The notes beneath the pieces are model-generated. The model did not search any database, was not told the DNA's origin, and worked only from the letters and a program-made list of their open reading frames with translations. Shown here piece by piece: positions 3,417 to 61,984 of a DNA stretch of 62,012 nt. Location: assembly GCA_964597145.1 (NCBI GenBank), contig CAZQWH010000005.1, positions 1 to 62,012 on the forward strand, read 5' to 3'. Both the position numbers and the translations under genes were made by a program. The DNA is from an uncultured Candidatus Saccharibacteria bacterium (lineage in GTDB: Bacteria > Patescibacteriota > CAZHWT01). Each line of letters begins with the position of its first letter. The stretch's first letter is position 1.

Positions 3417-3531
3417 GTCATTGCGAAGCCGTTCGGCTCTAAAGACTCAAGCCTCATTGCCCATTCGACGGTCTCAAGCTCATGGTCGAAGGATCAGGCT
3501 CGAATGAGGAGTGCTAGCGACTGTGGCAATC
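3417..3531 (+). repeat. GTCATTGCGA...GGCAATC hairpin module carrying nested inserts
   Basis: The ends match the 32-nt module at 59591-59622. The interior matches the 81-84-nt versions at 27837-27920 and 51151-51231, plus an extra insert of about 35 nt. Confidence 0.8.
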
Positions 3532-3592
3532 TACCTGCTTCACCGGCAGCTCAGCATCCCGTATTCCAGCCATCTCGCAATCCCGCAACCCC

Positions 3593-3621
3593 TTGACTTC
3601 CATCTAAATTAGATTCATAAT
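3593..3621 (+). promoter_or_regulatory. sigma70-like promoter TTGACT-17-CATAAT upstream of radC
   Basis: Read directly. Confidence 0.45.
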
Positions 3622-3648
3622 ACCGAAAATAACCCGAAAGGAACTGCA

Positions 3649-4341: not shown

Positions 4342-4403
4342 CTACCTCAGGGCTCGCCTAAAGGATGACCATCCTCCAGACGGCAAAAGGCAAAACTCAT
4401 TCA

Positions 4404-4466
4404 GGAATACAGAATACAGGATACAGGATACTAAATACTAAATACAAAATACGAAATACGAAATAC
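4404..4466. repeat. heptamer array, 9 units NNNATAC
   Basis: GGAATAC AGAATAC AGGATAC x2 TAAATAC x2 AAAATAC GAAATAC x2. Confidence 0.9.
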
Positions 4467-4467
4467 G

Positions 4468-4566
4468 AAACAAATCATAAACAAAACCCGTCCACCATGC
4501 GAGCCACAACCAGCCTTGCGGACAGGAATCACAAAATACCAACCCCATAACCAATCTCCAACCTCC
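4468..4566 (-). repeat. 99-nt conserved core, copy 1 (candidate sRNA or MITE core)
   Basis: Its reverse complement aligns along the full length with 12210-12308 and 21087-21185, with only a handful of mismatches by eye. Confidence 0.85.
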
Positions 4567-4594
4567 GATATACGATATACGACATACGAAATAC
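4567..4594. repeat. heptamer array GATATAC x2 GACATAC GAAATAC
   Basis: Read directly. Abuts the core. Confidence 0.85.
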
Positions 4595-4605
4595 GAACCC
4601 CTCCC

Positions 4606-4656
4606 GTCATCGCGCCCGTCCGCCTCTGGCGGAGGCGTAGCCGGAGAGATAGAATC
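4606..4656 (+). repeat. GTCAT...GATAGAATC hairpin module variant
   Basis: GTCATCGCGCCCGTCCGCCTCTGGCGGAGGCGTAGCCGGAGAGATAGAATC. Its 3' half matches the module at 12424-12460. Confidence 0.7.
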
Positions 4657-11962: not shown

Positions 11963-12025
11963 GGTCAAAGAGCAAAGCTCAAAAGGCAAAACGCATTCAG
12001 GAATACAGAATACAGGATACAGGAT
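11963..12025. repeat. degenerate heptamer array including the conserved end motif AAAACGCATTCAGGAATAC
   Basis: GGTCAAA GAGCAAA GCTCAAA AGGCAAA ACGCATT CAGGAAT ACAGAAT ACAGGAT x2. Confidence 0.85.
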
Positions 12026-12045
12026 GCTGGAGAAGGTTAGCATAC

Positions 12046-12160
12046 GTCATTGCGAAGGAGTGGTAACGACTGCGGCAACCTGCCCGCCATGCTTACGCAG
12101 CTGTTGCAGGCGGGTCTTGGTGGGATCTAGCAGATCGCCACGGCGTAGCCTCGCGATGAC
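12046..12160. repeat. pair of GTCAT hairpin modules in opposite orientation
   Basis: GTCATTGCGAAGGAGTGGTAACGACTGCGGCAAC (12046-12079, +) and GATCGCCACGGCGTAGCCTCGCGATGAC (12133-12160, -). The same pair occurs at 20985-21058 without the middle insert. Confidence 0.8.
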
Positions 12161-12171
12161 GGGGAAGGGAA

Positions 12172-12209
12172 TTTGTAGATCGTAGATTGTATATCGTATT
12201 TTGTATATC
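12172..12209. repeat. heptamer array TTTGTAG ATCGTAG ATTGTAT ATCGTAT TTTGTAT
   Basis: Read directly. Lies immediately 5' of core copy 2. Confidence 0.8.
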
Positions 12210-12308
12210 GGAGGTTGGAGATTGGTTATGGGGTTGGTATTTTGTGATTCCTGTCCGCAAGGCTGGTTATGGCTTGCCTAGTGGACGGGGCTTGTTTATG
12301 ATTTGTTT
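12210..12308 (+). repeat. 99-nt conserved core, copy 2 (candidate sRNA or MITE core)
   Basis: GGAGGTTGGAGATTGGTTATGGGGTTGGTATTTTGTGATTCCTGTCCGCAAGGCTGGTTATGGCTTGCCTAGTGGACGGGGCTTGTTTATGATTTGTTT. Confidence 0.85.
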
Positions 12309-12380
12309 GCTGATTGTGAGTTTCTAATTTTTGTATTTAATCGTCCTGTAGTTTGATCCCCTGCCTCCTGTCTTTTGTAT

Positions 12381-12415
12381 CCCACATCCCGACACCCGAC
12401 ACCCGACCCCCGACC
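12381..12415. repeat. heptamer array CCCACAT CCCGACA x2 CCCGACC x2
   Basis: Read directly. Confidence 0.85.
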
Positions 12416-12423
12416 CCCTTCCC

Positions 12424-12460
12424 GTCATTCTGGAACGAAGCGCAGCGAAGAGATAGAATC
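12424..12460 (+). repeat. 37-nt hairpin module GTCATTCTGGAACGAAGCGCAGCGAAGAGATAGAATC
   Basis: Copies or variants occur at 27949-27985 (+), 34137-34173 (-), 45164-45200 (-), 55818-54 (-) and 50273-50300 (+, inside atpD). Confidence 0.9.
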
Positions 12461-12464
12461 CCTT

Positions 12465-12520
12465 CCAAAGTCCAAAGTCCAAAGTCCAAAGTCCAAAGTC
12501 CAAAGTCCAAAGTCCAAAGT
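12465..12520. repeat. heptamer tandem array (CCAAAGT)x8
   Basis: Eight perfect units, followed by TCCCC and a promoter-like site upstream of the PIF1-like helicase gene. Confidence 0.95.
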
Positions 12521-17550: not shown

Positions 17551-17955
17551 GACACCACCTCCTTGGGAGTTACGACAAAGTCTTCGTCAGTACTCTACAG
17601 AACCCACGCAGTATACCAAACTATAGGGTAGTAATCAAAGAACTTGGTATAAAACTCAAAGAGTAACCCTGAAAGGAGAGCTACGTACTCATATTATTCT
17701 GTACTTTTAATACGGGTTGTCCTACTCTAGCGCAGCATCTATTCTGACCATCTATAGAGATCCTCAATCAAGCTGAGAATGACAAAAAAGATTACACACC
17801 TGAACTAGCGGTGTAAGTCCGGTTAAAACTCAACGTTAGTTACGGATGCTTAAATAGAAATAAAGTTATCTAAGATAAAAGAGAAAATTGCATTGAGTCT
17901 AAGGTGGCGATAGTCAGGATGAATGACTCTGTGCCACTCATCCTGACAAAACATC

Positions 17956-20795: not shown

Positions 20796-20856
20796 GTCAT
20801 TCCCAACTCCTGCTCACAACGCTTCGCTTGCAATAGCCGGTGAGTGATTGGGAATC
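20796..20856 (+). repeat. GTCATTCCCAA...TTGGGAATC hairpin module with a long loop
   Basis: GTCATTCCCAACTCC..GCTTCGCTTGCAATAGCC..GTGATTGGGAATC. Confidence 0.7.
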
Positions 20857-21086
20857 TAAAATGTTATCAGCTCATTCAACACTTTTGATTCCCGCCGAAG
20901 GCTATACTACACTAGATTCAGTGCGGGAATGACAGGAAGGGTGTCAGAATGCAGGATGCTAAAGAAGGTTAGTATACATACATGGCGAAGGAGTGGTAAC
21001 GACTGCGTCAATCTTGGTGGGAATGGGGTAGATCGCCACGACGTAGCTTCACGATGACGGGGAAGGGGATTTGTATATCGTATATC

Positions 21087-21185
21087 GGGGGTTGGAGATT
21101 GGTTATTGGGTTGGTGTGTTGTGATTCCTGTCCGCAAGGCTGGTTATGGCTTGCCTAGTGGACGGGTCTTGTTTATGATTTGTTT
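21087..21185 (+). repeat. 99-nt conserved core, copy 3
   Basis: Aligns along the full length with 12210-12308, with about five mismatches by eye. Confidence 0.85.
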
Positions 21186-21238
21186 CGTATTTCGTATTTC
21201 GTATTTCGTATCCTGCATCCTGTATTCTGTATTCCTGA
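21183..21238. repeat. heptamer array (TTTCGTA)x4 then TCCTGCA TCCTGTA TTCTGTA TTCCTGA
   Basis: Read directly. Confidence 0.9.
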
Positions 21239-27737: not shown

Positions 27738-27764
27738 CGTCATTCCGACCAACGTGGAGGAATC
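27738..27764 (+). repeat. hairpin module CGTCATTCCGACCAACGTGGAGGAATC
   Basis: Stem ATTCC/GGAAT inside conserved GTCAT..ATC flanks. Confidence 0.8.
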
Positions 27765-27836: not shown

Positions 27837-27920
27837 GATTGCCACAGTCGCTCTCACTCCTTATTCAAACCTGAGCGATGAGGTCGCCAGAGATCAGAGT
27901 CGAATGGCTTCGCAATGACG
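27837..27920 (-). repeat. 84-nt nested hairpin module (GATTGCC...CGCAATGAC)
   Basis: Homologous to 51151-51231 and to the interior of 3417-3531. Confidence 0.8.
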
Positions 27921-27948: not shown

Positions 27949-27985
27949 GTCATTCTGGAACAGAGCGTAGTGGGGAGATAGAATC
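27949..27985 (+). repeat. 37-nt hairpin module GTCATTCTGGAACAGAGCGTAGTGGGGAGATAGAATC
   Basis: Variant of the module at 12424-12460 in the same context: it is followed by CCTTC and a heptamer array. Confidence 0.9.
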
Positions 27986-27990
27986 CCTTC

Positions 27991-28046
27991 CACAGTCCAC
28001 AGTCCACAGTCCACAGTCCACAGTCCACAGTCCACAGTCCACAGTC
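27991..28046. repeat. heptamer tandem array (CACAGTC)x8
   Basis: Eight perfect units, followed by CAACCTCCCCC and a promoter-like site upstream of the 28093 ORF. Confidence 0.95.
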
Positions 28047-28092
28047 CAACCTCCCCCTTTACGTACTCTATTCAACCCGGTAATCTTATCCC

Positions 28093-34090: not shown

Positions 34091-34173
34091 GGGGAATACG
34101 GTACACGGAATTCGGGATACAGAAGACGGTAGACGAGATTCTATCTCTTCGCTTCGCTACGCTCCAGAATGAC
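34091..34173 (-). repeat. degenerate heptamer array plus a 37-nt hairpin module (reverse orientation)
   Basis: GGGGAAT ACGGTAC ACGGAAT TCGGGAT ACAGAAG ACGGTAG, then GATTCTATCTCTTCGCTTCGCTACGCTCCAGAATGAC (34137-34173). Confidence 0.85.
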
Positions 34174-45129: not shown

Positions 45130-45200
45130 GTCATCCTGGAGCCGAAGGCGATAGGATCTCTGAGATTCTATCTCTCCGCTGCGCTTCGCTCCAGAATGAC
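45130..45200. repeat. two hairpin modules facing each other between atpH and atpA
   Basis: GTCATCCTGGAGCCGAAGGCGATAGGATC (+), then GATTCTATCTCTCCGCTGCGCTTCGCTCCAGAATGAC (-). Confidence 0.85.
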
Positions 45201-47886: not shown

Positions 47887-50709
<2,823 letters not shown>

Positions 50710-50741: not shown

Positions 50742-50769
50742 TTACAATTAAAATCCATTACCAGATACC
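50742..50769 (+). repeat. 28-nt motif TTACAATTAAAATCCATTACCAGATACC, copy 2
   Basis: See 43634-43661. It runs directly into the CCAGATA array. Confidence 0.85.
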
Positions 50770-50809
50770 AGATACCAGATACCAGATACCAGATACCAGA
50801 TACCAGATA
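50761..50809. repeat. heptamer tandem array (CCAGATA)x7
   Basis: Seven perfect units ending 10 nt before the atpC start codon. Confidence 0.95.
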
Positions 50810-50819
50810 CCTACCCGCT

Positions 50820-51150: not shown

Positions 51151-51231
51151 GATTGCCACGTCGTTAATACTCCTCATTCGAGCCTGAGCGATGAGGCTTG
51201 AGTCTTTAGAGTCGAATGGCTTCGCAATGAC
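51151..51231 (-). repeat. 81-nt nested hairpin module (GATTGCC...CGCAATGAC)
   Basis: GATTGCCACGTCGTTAATACTCCTCATTCGAGCCTGAGCGATGAGGCTTGAGTCTTTAGAGTCGAATGGCTTCGCAATGAC. Confidence 0.85.
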
Positions 51232-52397: not shown

Positions 52398-52914
52398 AGA
52401 ATGCGGAATACGGGATGCAGGATACGGAAATAATTAACTCGTTTTCTGGAAGGCTTTAATCAATCCAAGAATAAGTTTACTAACTCGCGAGCTTTGGTTG
52501 GCTAAGAGCCCGAATTGCTCTGTATTTAAATAACCCAGGTCTCTACATATTAGTAATTGATTTTGCACTTCTTTGATTGAACCGTAAGCAATAAAGAGAA
52601 ATTGCACCTTCTCTTTATTGGATAGCCTAGCGAATCCCTCGGCAATATTACTAGTTATCGAAACAACTGCTCGCTGCAACTGGTCGACAAGATTATACCT
52701 TTCGCTGTTTGGTAACACTTTAAGTTCTTTGTAGACGAGCAATACGAGTTTATGCCCTTCTTGCCAGGCAACCAGGTCAGTAAATGAATTGAGTTTTGTG
52801 CTTTTCTGCTCTGATGACATGGGCCTACTATATACCTTTGGTCAATACCGCATCCTGATTTCTGTATTCCGCATCCCATATCCCATATTCCCGTATTCCC
52901 GCCTCCCGCATTCT
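52398..52914 (-). mobile_element. cassette: four-helix-bundle gene flanked by inverted heptamer arrays
   Basis: Left GAATGCG GAATACG GGATGCA GGATACG (52399-52427). Right CCGCATC CTGATTT CTGTATT CCGCATC CCATATC.. (52848-52914). Perfect 11-nt inverted pair ATGCGGAATAC / GTATTCCGCAT. Confidence 0.5.
52434..52820 (-). CDS. four-helix-bundle protein (23S rRNA IVS / Avd-like family)
   Basis: 128 aa. DLVAWQEGHKL..LPNSERYNLVDQLQRAVVSITSNIAEGFAR..GSIKEVQNQLLICRDLGYL. Confidence 0.8.
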   Translation of the reverse strand: MSSEQKSTKLNSFTDLVAWQEGHKLVLLVYKELKVLPNSERYNLVDQLQRAVVSITSNIAEGFARLSNKEKVQFLFIAYGSIKEVQNQLLICRDLGYLNTEQFGLLANQSSRVSKLILGLIKAFQKTS

Positions 52915-53036: not shown

Positions 53037-53273
53037 GTCATGCTGAACTCGTTTCAGCATCTGGCTACTCCAGTTAGATCCTGAAATAAATTCAGGATGA
53101 TAGCAAGATAAAGGAGGTGGTAGCAAACACATAAATACCTAAATATTTATGCTAGTAGGCGCTAGATTGCGCCTGGTGCTTTTACCCGACGGGCTCCGTC
53201 ATTCTAGCGCGGTTGTCATCCTGAATTTATTTCAGGATCTAACCAATAGATGCTGAATCAAGTTCAGCATGAC
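53037..53273. mobile_element. 237-bp MITE-like element with composite terminal inverted repeats of about 60 bp
   Basis: The left arm is GTCATGCTGAAC..TTCAGCATC plus GATCCTGAAATAAATTCAGGATGA. The right arm is GTCATCCTGAATTTATTTCAGGATC plus GATGCTGAATCAAGTTCAGCATGAC. There is no ORF inside. Confidence 0.6.
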
Positions 53274-54740: not shown

Positions 54741-54999
54741 GTTGGGTAATACATGTACATTTTTATTTGGCGATGTTTTCATGTCCTGATTAGCCTAAAA
54801 AAGCCTGCATGTCGGTAGACAGGTTTGGAACGACAGTGAGATGGTGTCATGCTGAGTTTGTTTCAATGTCTAGACTGTGTCTTTATCCGGTATTTAGATC
54901 CTTCACTTCGTTCAGGATGGCAAGGGGAGTGGGCCAATAGCAGAACTAAATCAAAAGATAGCCAAAAACTCTCACTTCGGTAGGAATTTTTTGTTTGGA

Positions 55000-55035: not shown

Positions 55036-55306
55036 TTTTTGTAAGTATATATTTTACAACCTAATTACCGTCTAGCATGCCATTCTTGCGTAAGTTTTTG
55101 ATTCTACCCACTCAATTACAGTCAGGGCATCCTGAGTTGTATCGAGGGATGAGGACAAAGTCTGTCTTCGAGAGCCTAACGACTCTTCAGAGTCTTGAAC
55201 GGCAGACTCAGACTATCAGGGTATTTCGTCATTGCGAGCACTGAATCAAGTTCAGCACAGGCTCCGCGCGGCAATCTAGGCTGGATAGTTGTAGTATGCT
55301 TAGAAT

Positions 55307-55441
55307 ATGACTAAGCAGCCCCGTGTTTACGTCTTAACTAATGCCACTCGATGTGTGCTTTATGTTGGTGTTACTTCAAACTTAGCCAAGCGCATATTTG
55401 AGTATAAGAGCAGTGCTGCCCCCGGATTTACTCAAAAATAG
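55307..55441 (+). pseudogene. GIY-YIG nuclease gene remnant (premature TAG, 3' part lost)
   Basis: Encodes MTKQPRVYVLTNATRCVLYVGVTSNLAKRIFEYKSSAAPGFTQK, then TAG where the paralogue at 59676-59921 has Y (GFTQKYHVH). Downstream sequence has diverged. Confidence 0.55.
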
Positions 55442-55480
55442 CACATTGAATTCCATTGTTCTGCATGGTAAAGTCGGGCT

Positions 55481-55678: not shown

Positions 55679-55790
55679 ACTTCTCAAATTAAACAGAACT
55701 AAAAGTTTTTGATTCCTGCTTGCGCAGACATGGTAATGAAATAAAAAGATTGCCACGTCGTCACCACTCCTCGCAATGACAGCGAGTTGA

Positions 55791-55817: not shown

Positions 55818-55910
55818 GATTCTATCTCTCCACTTCGTTTCGTTCCAGAATGACTTACATTATTAGAGATTGCTGTACTACCTTCGTCAAAGGCCGACAG
55901 GCGCAATGAC
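55818..55910 (-). repeat. two reverse-orientation hairpin modules
   Basis: GATTCTATCTCTCCACTTCGTTTCGTTCCAGAATGAC (55818-55854) and GATTGCTGTACTACC..GGCGCAATGAC (55868-55910). Confidence 0.8.
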
Positions 55911-55934: not shown

Positions 55935-56424
55935 GGTATGGAATTTAGGATGTAGGATACAGGAGATAGTATTTAGTAGCTAGGATTTGGTTTTGAATGA
56001 TTTGATTAATCCGTGCAATAGTTTGCCCACAACAATCATCTGTTTTTCTAAAGTAAGGTATTGTTCGCTAGAGATGTATCCAAGGTCTTTTGCTATTGTT
56101 AACTGGTTTTCAACCTCTTTAACTGATCCTAATGAAATGTAGAAGAATTGAATTTTTCTTTGAATGATTGTCGAGTAAATCCCTCGGCAATATTACTCGT
56201 AATAGAAACGGCGGCTCGCTGCAATTGATCAACCAAGTTGTATTTTTCTGAGTTTGGTAATTTAGATGTCTCATTATAAATTTGCAGCACTAATTTATGA
56301 CCTTCCTGCCACGCAATGAGATCTTTAAATGAATGTAGTAATCCCTTATCTGTGGTTAACTGCATGCAGATATTTACACCGACTAGTCAAGCACACTACA
56401 TCCTACATCCTAAATTCCATATCC
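55935..56424 (-). mobile_element. cassette: frameshifted four-helix-bundle gene flanked by a perfect 22-bp inverted repeat built from heptamers
   Basis: TATGGAATTTAGGATGTAGGAT (55937-55958) and its exact reverse complement ATCCTACATCCTAAATTCCATA (56400-56421). Confidence 0.6.
55980..56365 (-). pseudogene. four-helix-bundle (IVS/Avd-like) gene with a frameshift in an A-run
   Basis: The N-terminal 70 aa align with the ORF at 52434-52820 (DLIAWQEGHKL..NLVDQLQRAAVSITSNIAEGF). After KEK the homologous continuation IQFFYISLGSVKEVENQLTIAKDLGYIS..LIKSFKTKS is in another frame, with its stop at 55980. Confidence 0.65.
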
Positions 56425-59590: not shown

Positions 59591-60021
59591 GTCATTGCGA
59601 GGAGTGGAGCGACGTGGCAATCTTGCATATAATCTACTCGTCATCGCGAGCGCAGTACGGCAATCCTAGTTAGAGTTATTGAGTTAACTTCTGGTACAAA
59701 TCTTCCCAAAGTGGGTTAGCTTGCTCAATCAACCGTAGCTTCTTTTCCCTCGAGCCAGCCTTAAGTTGCTTCTCCCGTTTAATGGCAGACTCGATGTCTT
59801 CAAATACTTCAAAATAAACTAATTTGTGGACATGATATTTTTGAGTGAAACCTACTATTGAATTTGATCTGTGTTCAAAAATTCGCTTAGTTATATTACT
59901 GGTTACGCCAATGTACAACACGCAGCCAGTTTTATTTAGTAATTAATATAAACATAGGATTGCTTCATAACTGAGATTTTACTCCAGTATGGCAAGATTG
60001 CCACGCTACGCTCGCAATGAC
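59591..60021 (-). mobile_element. GIY-YIG gene flanked by inverted GTCAT..GCAATC hairpin modules
   Basis: Left: GTCATTGCGAGGAGTGGAGCGACGTGGCAATC (59591-59622) and GTCATCGCGAGCGCAGTACGGCAATC (59640-59665), both +. Right: GATTGCCACGCTACGCTCGCAATGAC (59996-60021), -. Confidence 0.5.
59676..59921 (-). CDS. GIY-YIG nuclease family protein (N-terminal strand appears frameshifted off)
   Basis: 81 aa from a GTG: LYIGVTSNITKRIFEH..KYHVHKLVYFEVF..AIKREKQLK. The expected N-terminus (ATG at 59955, MFILI..) is in another frame. Confidence 0.6.
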   Translation of the reverse strand: MLYIGVTSNITKRIFEHRSNSIVGFTQKYHVHKLVYFEVFEDIESAIKREKQLKAGSREKKLRLIEQANPLWEDLYQKLTQ

Positions 60022-61845: not shown

Positions 61846-61984
61846 GAGAATACAAAATACAGGATGTGGAATGCAGTAGTAATGAGGTTCCTGCACCCTG
61901 CGCCTTCTGTTTGGCTTGTCGTACTTGTTTCAGTTGTCATCCTGAACTTGTTTCAGTTGTCATCCTGAACTTGTTTCAGGATCT
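61846..61984. repeat. degenerate heptamers, then a tandem duplication of the 22-nt unit TTGTCATCCTGAACTTGTTTCAG
   Basis: GAGAATA CAAAATA CAGGATG TGGAATG (61846-61873). GTCATCCTGAACTTGTTTCAG occurs twice, the second copy closing as ..TTTCAGGATC (61925-61984). Confidence 0.8.

Follow-up and report, generated by a model that had tools for sequence, protein, structure and literature searches.

Introduction

Two groups of repeats described earlier are closest to those considered here. CGTC-tagged repetitive extragenic palindromes (REP) carry a CGTC, TGTC or CCTC tag, stems of 8–9 bp that start with AT, loops of 4–5 nt and a short tail. They include dRS3 of Neisseria and the Rickettsia palindromic elements (RPE) RPE-4 and RPE-6. 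No transposase is linked to these repeats; head-to-head dimers predominate, and the tail is near CCA (Di Nocera 2013, BMC Genomics 14:522). The second group consists of the NTS repeats of Neisseria (CGTCATTCCCGCGMAVGCGGGAATCYRG) and the Ssn-related motifs (SRM). They flank ssnA, a 94-aa single-domain GIY-YIG gene, in an NTS-ssnA-NTS architecture that was likened to an insertion sequence (IS) (Chenal 2025, Nat Commun 16:2388; PMC11893778). SsnA binds the hairpin only as single-stranded DNA (ssDNA) and ignores RNA; its cut falls a few nucleotides upstream of the hairpin. For binding, the C that follows the palindrome is the most crucial base, and for cleavage the 3 nt before the palindrome matter. 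Binding and cutting were shown for the Neisseria and Wolbachia Ssn enzymes. The only role demonstrated for Ssn and NTS is the restriction of transforming ssDNA in the natural transformation of Neisseria, and SRM-rich genomes are enriched in symbionts (PMC11893778). Here we analysed a stretch of 62,012 nt (the window; the complete contig CAZQWH010000005.1, found in soil metagenomes) from an uncultured Candidatus Saccharibacteria bacterium, in which hairpin modules with the flanks GTCAT and ATC are scattered between genes, one of them being a nested composite at 3417–3531. These modules probably belong to the CGTC-tagged REP superfamily, or SRM, with Ssn as partner, and have spread as non-autonomous derivatives of the gene-bearing cassette, with the elements X and X' inserted in loops. 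The kind of repeat is already known, from the CGTC REPs (2013) and from Ssn/SRM (2025). The window holds a member from an unstudied lineage, with variant hairpin classes.

Hairpin modules of the window

The initial annotation, made from the sequence alone, had counted more than 25 modules, and this number holds. The pattern GTCATN{15,45}ATC gives 86 matches in the window versus 42.7 ± 6.6 in shuffles. Using a strict criterion (a perfect stem of at least 5 bp from the AT of GTCAT, with C directly 3' of the 3' arm), we found 24 hairpins of no more than 60 nt, whereas 200 dinucleotide shuffles gave 1.3 ± 1.2 (maximum 6). Nineteen of the 24 lie outside long open reading frames (ORFs), which is 22% of the window; the in-gene matches (three or four; 4181, 10860, 45861) are probably due to chance. 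Together with three long nested forms and 6–8 degenerate copies, this gives about 30 oriented modules, almost all non-coding.

Every scored module begins with (C/T/G)GTCAT, and GTC is the most frequent 3-nt tag before AT-start hairpins in the window (29 versus no more than 18 for any other tag). All intact modules end with ATC, and the C after the palindrome is invariant across 26 canonical sequences. The flanks GTC-AT and AT-C thus correspond exactly to the published determinants of cleavage and binding. The 3-nt tails are mostly CTN or CCN, with CCA once (51151–51231). Copies occur on both strands irrespective of the direction of neighbouring genes, and among the pairs no more than 100 nt apart seven are tail-to-tail versus two head-to-head.

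At least five stem classes are present. Class A has the 8-bp stem ATSCTGAA and a 5-nt loop, class B is ATTGC…GCAAT, class C is ATTCT…AGAAT with a length of 37 nt, class D is ATCGC…GCGAT, and a few modules have Neisseria-like ATTCC(C) stems. All six stem pairs listed in the initial annotation were found. Classes B, C and D have 5-bp outer stems and interiors of 14–23 nt. Most window modules either combine such an outer stem with another hairpin inside it or have long loops.

The modules are given below, except for those with the X insert, which are given with the composite. E-values are those of the covariance model (CM) R1.

59591–59622 (+): class B base module, 32 nt
55748–55780 (−): class B base module of 33 nt, inverted, on the far side of ssn remnant 2
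59996–60021 (−): class B, 27 nt upstream of ssn pseudogene 1 and on the same strand as the gene; geometry as in the 80 sampled loci
59640–59665 (+): B/D hybrid, ATCGC...GCAAT with a single C·A stem mismatch, 10 nt past the stop of ssn pseudogene 1, on the opposite strand
55228–55276 (+): class B, upstream of ssn remnant 2; the loop holds a reversed class-A-like hairpin
55868–55910 (−): class B stem with an unrelated 27-nt loop insert
12046–12080 (+): degenerate class B, X-less GCGAAGGAG form, tail-to-tail with 12133–12160
20979–21013 (+): degenerate class B, GTC tag lost, paralogue of 12046–12080
12133–12160 (−): class D, outer stem ATCGC/GCGAT, inner stem GGC/GCC
21031–21058 (−): class D
12424–12460 (+): class C, 37 nt (ATTCT/AGAAT), flanked by two heptamer arrays
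27949–27985 (+): class C
34137–34173 (−): class C
45164–45200 (−): class C, tail-to-tail with 45130–45158, between atpH and atpA
45130–45158 (+): short class C-like, ATCCT/AGGAT, inner GCC-GAA-GGC
55818–55854 (−): class C
4606–4656 (+): chimeric module with a class D-type 5' arm, a class C-type 3' arm and an inserted hairpin
50273–50300 (+): short class C, in frame within the C-terminal extension of the atpD ORF
53037–53061 (+): class A, canonical (8-bp stem, 5-nt loop), E = 2e-6
53077–53101 (−): class A, ATC replacing the GTC tag, tail-to-tail with 53037–53061, E = 3e-4
53215–53239 (+): class A, canonical, E = 5e-6
53249–53273 (−): class A, canonical, tail-to-tail with 53215–53239, E = 1e-7
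61936–61983 (+): class A, canonical; a 23-nt tandem copy of its own 5' half precedes the hairpin
17759–17783 (−): class A, imperfect, E = 1.6e-4
54846–54870 (+): class A, degenerate
20796–20856 (+): Neisseria-type stem ATTCCCAA/TTGGGAAT with a 41-nt loop insert, E = 1e-3
20887–20933 (−): Neisseria-type stem ATTCCCGC/GCGGGAAT with a 27-nt loop insert; DNA fold z = −3.0
27739–27764 (+): module with an ATTCC/GGAAT stem

Two modules with mixed arms (59640–59665 and 4606–4656) are possibly half-compensated intermediates or recombinants between classes. A perfect tandem duplication of 23 nt (2.5 copies) at 61923–61983 covers the class A 5' half and the conserved TTTCAGTT leader. Since TTTCAG, with which the 3' arm starts, recurs in this leader, slippage between the two is likely.

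Stem covariation and folding

Compensatory changes in the stems, noticed in the initial annotation, turned out to be significant both in the window and in a wider alignment. In the window, every one of the nine distinct stem families shows complementarity at the three variable positions (permutation probability 3.3e-5). A CM was built from 26 canonical hairpins and gave 201 matches in 618 kb. The resulting alignment comprised 110 distinct canonical hairpins from the window and 80 other genomes. In this alignment, which is fitted to the model, 99.4% of cells pair, compensatory changes occur in 7 of the 8 pairs, and double-change cells number 176 versus 47 ± 5 in shuffles (0 of 500). Sliding the partners lowers the covariation score from 0.524 to no more than 0.07, and stem pairs 1 and 2 are invariably A-T and T-A. 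In an unfitted test, the six variable stem positions were all complementary at 62 of the 151 GTCAT sites in oriented ssn flanks versus 43 of the 935 sites more than 500 nt away. About 10% of the CM matches in other phyla have expanded loops, like those of the window. When the modules were folded as ssDNA, the 8-bp forms alone beat shuffles (z = −3.5 and −3.0). For classes B, C and D z was near 0, so the pairing of the 5-bp classes rests on covariation and not on energy.

Strong stem covariation would also be expected if the modules were structured RNA, that is, small RNAs or mRNA stabilisers in which the covarying bases pair as RNA. Two A-to-G changes in the 5' arm of the X element in 3417–3531 would keep G·U pairs. 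However, an Rfam search at gathering thresholds and a tRNA scan of the window sequence gave no match, the strand of the copies does not follow the neighbouring genes, motifs in the module interiors (GCGAAGC, for example) resemble stable DNA mini-hairpins, and the characterised partner protein ignores RNA. We consider the RNA explanation hardly credible.

Genes of the ssn type and their association with the hairpins

The window contains two genes of the ssn type. Both stand between inverted class B modules with the tags outward, as in an IS-like cassette.

59676–59968 (−): ssn pseudogene 1 (ORF 59676–59921, −), GIY-YIG, 96 codons with the 2-nt frameshift removed; Pfam PF01541, 4.6e-11
55310–55447 (+): ssn remnant 2 (ORF 55310–55441, +), the first ~44–45 codons, followed by a stop and loss of similarity; Pfam PF01541, 5e-6; tblastn, 2e-16

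The 2-nt frameshift of pseudogene 1 lies after YVYI (after codon 8). All 20 family-invariant residues are retained in alignment A2, where Y7, Y18 and E65 are invariant. The same frameshifted ORF is found in 6 independent assemblies, all at the same locus, from six runs of one study. The frameshift-corrected protein shows 49% identity to the SsnA orthologue of N. gonorrhoeae in an ungapped alignment (E = 4e-30), with Y6, Y17 and E64 conserved, and the gene of this orthologue adjoins CGTCATTCCCGC…GGGAATC repeats. Judging by PF01541 and by this identity, the window Ssn has the features of the cd10448 family: a single GIY-YIG domain, homology to Neisseria SsnA, and the catalytic tyrosines and glutamate. 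Neither copy keeps an intact ORF. NCBIfam contains no Ssn-specific model, the PDB offers only the distant UPF0213 structures 1ZG2 and 1YWL, and a search for Ssn homologues in a phage collection found none.

Pseudogene 1 is flanked by the modules 59996–60021 (−) and 59640–59665 (+), and remnant 2 by 55228–55276 (+) and 55748–55780 (−). The distances match the medians of the 80 loci described below. Tail-to-tail module pairs that enclose no gene have the geometry of SRM-ssn-SRM minus the gene.

Ssn homologues of about 95 aa occur in very many phyla. We sampled 80 ssn loci from many phyla, and in 46 of them a (C/T)GTCAT-stem-ATC(C/T)A hairpin with a perfect stem lies no more than 200 nt from the gene. 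Typically, one hairpin is located 30–120 nt upstream on the gene strand and one just downstream on the other strand. Hairpin density is 2.14 per kb near ssn versus 0.19 per kb far off. With a relaxed detector, 69 of the 80 loci were positive, 49 on both sides, and class B was found in 19. Thus the small GIY-YIG genes, named in the initial annotation as the only nucleases associated with the modules, correspond to the published Ssn/SRM pairing (PMC11893778), which the 80 loci allowed us to derive again independently.

Several hairpins beside ssn in other genomes are of the window's types. An alphaproteobacterium and a gammaproteobacterium have, next to ssn, the class A hairpin GTCATCCTGAACTTGTTTCAGGATC, identical to that of the window, and a Moraniibacteriota genome has the near-identical GTCATCCTGAACTTGATTCAGGATC there. 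A Woesebacteria genome carries the class B copy GTCATTGCGAGCGAAGCGTGGCAATC, one loop base off the window's. Window-type hairpins of class A stand at the loci L021, L061 and L076, and one of class B at L019; the 32-nt short form is shared with other phyla, for example at L015 and L028. Comparison across phyla presents class B as a two-tier hairpin with a 5-bp outer stem, a purine-rich internal loop GA(G)/(C)GWR and an inner stem-loop. The sequence and length of the latter vary between genomes while self-complementarity is kept (inner stems GCCCC/GGGGC, TTGGTCAA/TTGACCAA and AAACGGAA/TTCCGTTT, for example). This two-tier ATTGCGAG…GCAAT class is widespread and is new here; it flanks ssn in at least 19 of the 80 sampled genomes. 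As a separate observation, the hairpin types of the window are closest to those beside ssn in genomes of the candidate phyla radiation (L019, L045, L061).

Linkage to ssn bears on another explanation, in which the modules would be REPINs mobilised by a REP-associated tyrosine transposase (RAYT, that is TnpA-REP, an IS200-like Y1 transposase) encoded elsewhere, and their linkage to GIY-YIG genes would be coincidental. Short tagged hairpins, inverted doublets and intergenic clusters look similar in both cases, and the initial annotation had called the modules REP/BIME-like while noting that the window lacks a RAYT or IS200-type transposase. Indeed, no RAYT, IS200, Y1_Tnp or any other transposase domain was found in any window ORF. 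The tag is (C/T)GTC and not GTAG, CGTC repeats have no linked transposase (Di Nocera 2013), and linkage to ssn was seen in 69 of the 80 loci across phyla. Mobilisation by a RAYT is therefore extremely improbable.

The nested composite at 3417–3531

The region 3417–3531 (GTCATTGCGAAG…GTGGCAATC) is built in three levels, and two further modules carry the insert of the second level (alignment A1 for the composite).

3417–3531 (+): three-level composite, class B (5' part 3417–3428, 3' part 3509–3531) containing X containing X'
3429–3508 (+): X element, 47 nt without X', palindromic ends CCRTTCGRC...CTCGAATGAG
3461–3493 (+): X' element, 33 nt, CCATTCGACGGTCTCAAGCTCATGGTCGAAGGA, a shorter homologue of X located in the X loop after CCTCAT-YGC
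27837–27919 (−): class B with X insert
51151–51231 (−): class B with X insert

X interrupts class B at GCGAAG^GAGT, within its purine-rich internal loop, and 12046–12080 shows the base form GCGAAGGAGTGG without X. The initial annotation had described a nested series of a 32-nt form, an insert of about 50 nt and a further insert of about 35 nt, and had proposed mapping the insertion points. The alignment reproduces this series: forms of 32, ~82 and 115 nt align end to end with clean junctions. The modules 27837–27919 (−) and 51151–51231 (−) consist of the base form with 48–51 nt after GTCATTGCGAAG, and 3417–3531 adds 33 nt inside that insert. X and X' are homologous to each other and not to the GTCAT modules.

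Copy number was assessed from the depth of assembler unitigs and contigs in four soil-metagenome runs that contain the window contig. The unique flanks have a depth of ~23x, the class B ends 4–6 times and the X flanks 10–20 times that value, and the X' core reaches 1100–1300, about 50 times single-copy DNA. The innermost unit is the most abundant, which fits successive insertion. Other genomic copies have the joints 3426->3507 and 3457->CGC->3494. At other loci, the same contigs have copies that lack X' (CCTCAT-CGC-TCAGG) and class B modules that lack X. X' occurs in at least one other context, a loose contig end at 3461 with the same junction at another locus. X-like copies outside class B modules were found neither in the window nor in the 80 ssn loci or four relatives. 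A blastn search of the 115-nt composite against plasmids gave no match, the stored matches of a metagenome scan with the loose pattern CCATTCGACN{3,12}CTCAAGC were all due to chance, and a literature text search for the repeat sequences returned primer coincidences only.

It is possible to obtain nested forms without any insertion, by deletion from longer ancestral repeats or by slippage or template switching within palindromes. The 23-nt tandem duplication of half a module at 61923–61979 demonstrates that slippage occurs, X and X' are homologous, and 3417–3531 can also be read as a partial tandem duplication of TGC…CCATTCGAC…CTCAAGC.TCAT. However, other phyla (L015, L028) share the 32-nt form, which marks this form as ancestral; none of the 80 ssn loci carries X; and X' far outnumbers its host sequence and occurs in other contexts. 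An origin without insertion is thus improbable.

Repeated insertion into hairpins, as proposed in the initial annotation, is supported by these data. The junctions are precise, copy number rises inward, and unrelated DNA is also found in the loops of further modules (55228, 55868, 20796, 20887 and 4606). This picture needs correction in two respects: the three copies of class B with X share one insertion point and thus go back to a single event followed by spread as a composite, and the inserts are not copies of GTCAT modules. X and X' are a separate lineage-specific palindromic family, which is new here. A bolder suggestion, which we put forward as tentative and rather doubtful, is that they represent a new kind of ultra-small (33–47 nt) non-coding palindromic mobile element that inserts a few nucleotides downstream of (G/C)TCAT in single-stranded loops of Ssn-type hairpins and of its own relatives. 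Each insertion would bring a new TCAT-bearing loop, and self-nesting would thereby become possible.

We also observed a composite repeat of ~250–350 nt at 11966–12310, 20945–21190 and, reversed, 4384–4600. In parts its copies are up to 94–96% identical, and it includes a class D module placed tail-to-tail with a degenerate class B module. An extra 36-nt hairpin (GCCCGCC…GGCGGGTCT, ~12076–12111) in the copy 12046–12160 is missing from 20979–21058 and is another small palindromic insertion.

Spread of the modules in the host lineage

The nearest named homologues of the window's inorganic pyrophosphatase (PPase) come from Saccharibacteria and Patescibacteria (62–65% identity), and those of its glucose-6-phosphate dehydrogenase (~50%) from Chloroflexota, Verrucomicrobiota and Armatimonadetes. 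In a relative whose PPase is 86% identical and whose ppa-radC synteny is retained, the two genes are separated by a spacer of only 112 nt, with a plain terminator and the conserved radC promoter and leader. In the window this spacer is 367 nt long and contains heptamers and the composite. No modules were found in 19 kb from four relatives. The short plain spacer and the lack of modules in the relatives suggest that the repeats expanded within the window's lineage. The radC promoter and leader (TTGAC…N17…CATAATACCGAAAATAACCCGAAA; 3570–3648 in the window and 2360–2403 in L209) are conserved with the relative, and the rest of the spacer is unrelated. Apparently, the repeat block was added upstream of an intact promoter.

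These data also bear on the possibility that the modules are domesticated elements of the host. Kept around genes by the host, they would let Ssn trim incoming or exposed ssDNA and so control transformation and recombination, as in Neisseria, or they would act as REP-like structural signals in mRNA or DNA, and their numbers would reflect selection and not transposition. The sole tested function of Ssn/NTS is indeed the modulation of natural transformation, RadC and a type IV pilin-like protein are among the products encoded in the window, and the modules stand between genes and also within the atp operon. However, both ssn copies of the window are broken, close relatives lack modules, and many copies are degenerate, chimeric or insert-bearing. 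The hairpins are not followed by a T-run and so are not intrinsic terminators. Domestication is unlikely, although it deserves some weight. Each of the four alternative explanations is rated below the spread of SRM-type modules as derivatives of an ssn cassette.

We propose that the modules are non-autonomous derivatives of SRM-ssn-SRM cassettes that have spread probably via ssDNA intermediates. The stem and flanks would be read by the protein, and the loops, together with the internal loop of class B, would be single-stranded. Inserted DNA may be tolerated there, or even targeted there, because such loops would be single-stranded and not read. A micro-element with CCATTCGAC…TCGAAKGA ends (X, 47 nt; X', 33 nt) would have inserted into the class B internal loop, and a copy of the same family would then have inserted into the X loop as X'. 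Both would land a few bases 3' of a (G/C)TCAT motif and bring a new motif of this kind. The composites would have stayed copyable and thus reached at least three sites of the window.

Several points weigh against this proposal. The published SRM search motif HGTCWYN(0-2)YYVSBRHN(0-5)WNVSBRGN(0-2)RNCYNB has 0 matches in the window (0.2 in shuffles); this motif is a search tool tuned to ATTCCCGCG-type stems and not a definition of the family. The 5-bp classes are thermodynamically no better than shuffled DNA. The window has no intact ssn gene, which makes any Ssn activity in this genome hypothetical. Recognition and cutting of the window modules by Ssn are presumed from homology. Given the sequence specificity of Neisseria SsnA, the presence of five stem classes would call for several enzymes or for one of relaxed specificity. 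Ssn cuts upstream of the hairpin and not inside it, which leaves the insertion points of X and X' unexplained by Ssn. The only demonstrated role of Ssn, ssDNA restriction in Neisseria, is a host function and not transposition. Finally, the depth values come from unitigs of a metagenome assembler, and extra copies could partly belong to related strains.

With these modules, an uncultured soil lineage, probably related to Patescibacteria, joins the genomes that Ssn-type hairpin repeats have colonised. Whole repeat classes escape the published SRM search motif, a new observation here; among them are all window modules and ATTGCGAG…GCAAT. Broken ssn genes, tail-to-tail doublets without a gene and close relatives free of repeats give circumstantial support to SRM-ssn-SRM cassettes resembling decaying insertion sequences and not fixed host genes. 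The exact junctions of X and X', together with the copy-number gradient, are a concrete handle on the movement of tiny palindromes. If X and X' are indeed mobile and driven by the same ssDNA nuclease system, their junctions would be the first direct read-out of CGTC/SRM copying, an open question since 2013. The variant hairpin classes point to Ssn enzymes with new specificities, which may be of use as ssDNA tools.

Genomic surroundings

About 35 tandem arrays with a 7-nt period (CAGTCTA, TCCAAAG, TCCACAG, TACCAGA, GCATCCC, TCGTATT and others) fill the intergenic DNA, for example at 1–55, 4405–4470, 12388–12418, 12464–12520, 27989–28048 and 50759–50811. They adjoin the modules, in many cases starting immediately 3' of ATC or lying a few bases 5' of the GTC tag, and class C copies stand at the junction of two different arrays. 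Heptamer arrays of such a kind are known from Nostoc. From the same genus, Elhai et al. (2008) reportedly described very small (21–27 nt) dispersed repeats that are mutually nested and embedded in heptamer arrays. Elhai's repeats belong to heterocystous cyanobacteria with HIP1, and SDR5 is reportedly located inside HIP1. Because of the heptamer arrays we considered a Nostocales origin of the window, with the modules being SDR4/5/6, and rejected it. The HIP1 sequence (GCGATCGC) has 0 occurrences in the 62 kb, and the protein neighbours are not cyanobacterial; this sets the modules apart from the SDRs by host traits and not by their sequences.

The atpD ORF (48496–50709), which encodes the beta subunit of F1 ATP synthase, has 737 aa versus the usual ~470 aa. 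Its extension (~49900–50709) comprises ~260 aa of low complexity, and the DNA contains heptamer arrays and the in-frame SRM-like module 50273–50300. The latter recalls the palindromic elements of Rickettsia that are inserted in frame. Three genes for four-helix-bundle proteins of the 23S rRNA-intervening-sequence type (PF05635) were found at 47963–48364 (+), 52434–52820 (−) and 56129–56365 (−). Of these, one is truncated, and one is located within the atp operon, with atpG and atpD on either side. Inverted heptamer arrays bracket every one of the three, as if it had been inserted as a cassette, and a 107-nt stretch is 74% identical between two of them (52609–52715 versus 56154–56260).

Comparison with known systems

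The modules agree with SRM/NTS in being oriented, (C/T)GTC-tagged AT-start palindromes followed by C, in their high intergenic copy number, and in the ~95-aa GIY-YIG gene located between inverted copies. They differ from the published SRM by the 5-bp outer stems with an inner hairpin or long loops, and both ssn genes of the window are pseudogenes. Chenal 2025 (PMC11893778) describes no nested inserts in its main text and does not name this host lineage there.

Compared with the CGTC REPs, class A (53037, 53215, 53249, 61959) has the AT-start stem of 8–9 bp and the 4–5-nt loop. Class A and the modules with the ATTCCC stem fit the definition, with a TGTC/CGTC tag and no linked transposase, whereas classes B, C and D fall outside the published ranges of 8–9 bp and 4–5 nt. 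In addition, the tail in the window is mostly CTN and not CCA, and pairs are mainly tail-to-tail and not head-to-head. As with the RPEs of Rickettsia, of which a copy can lie in frame in a coding region, one window module does so.

The REP/REPIN-RAYT systems (Nunvar 2010; Bertels and Rainey 2011; Ton-Hoang 2012) share with the window a common logic, in which the ssDNA hairpins are short and tagged, doublets are inverted and a small nuclease gene stands between its own repeats. They differ in the GTAG tag and the HUH/Y1 transposase, in contrast to the GTC tag and the GIY-YIG nuclease of the window, which has no RAYT. Hairpin repeats are landing sites also for IS1397, ISKpn1 and ISPpu9, which insert into REP loops. 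Unlike these, the insert of the window is itself a palindrome of 33–47 nt without coding capacity.

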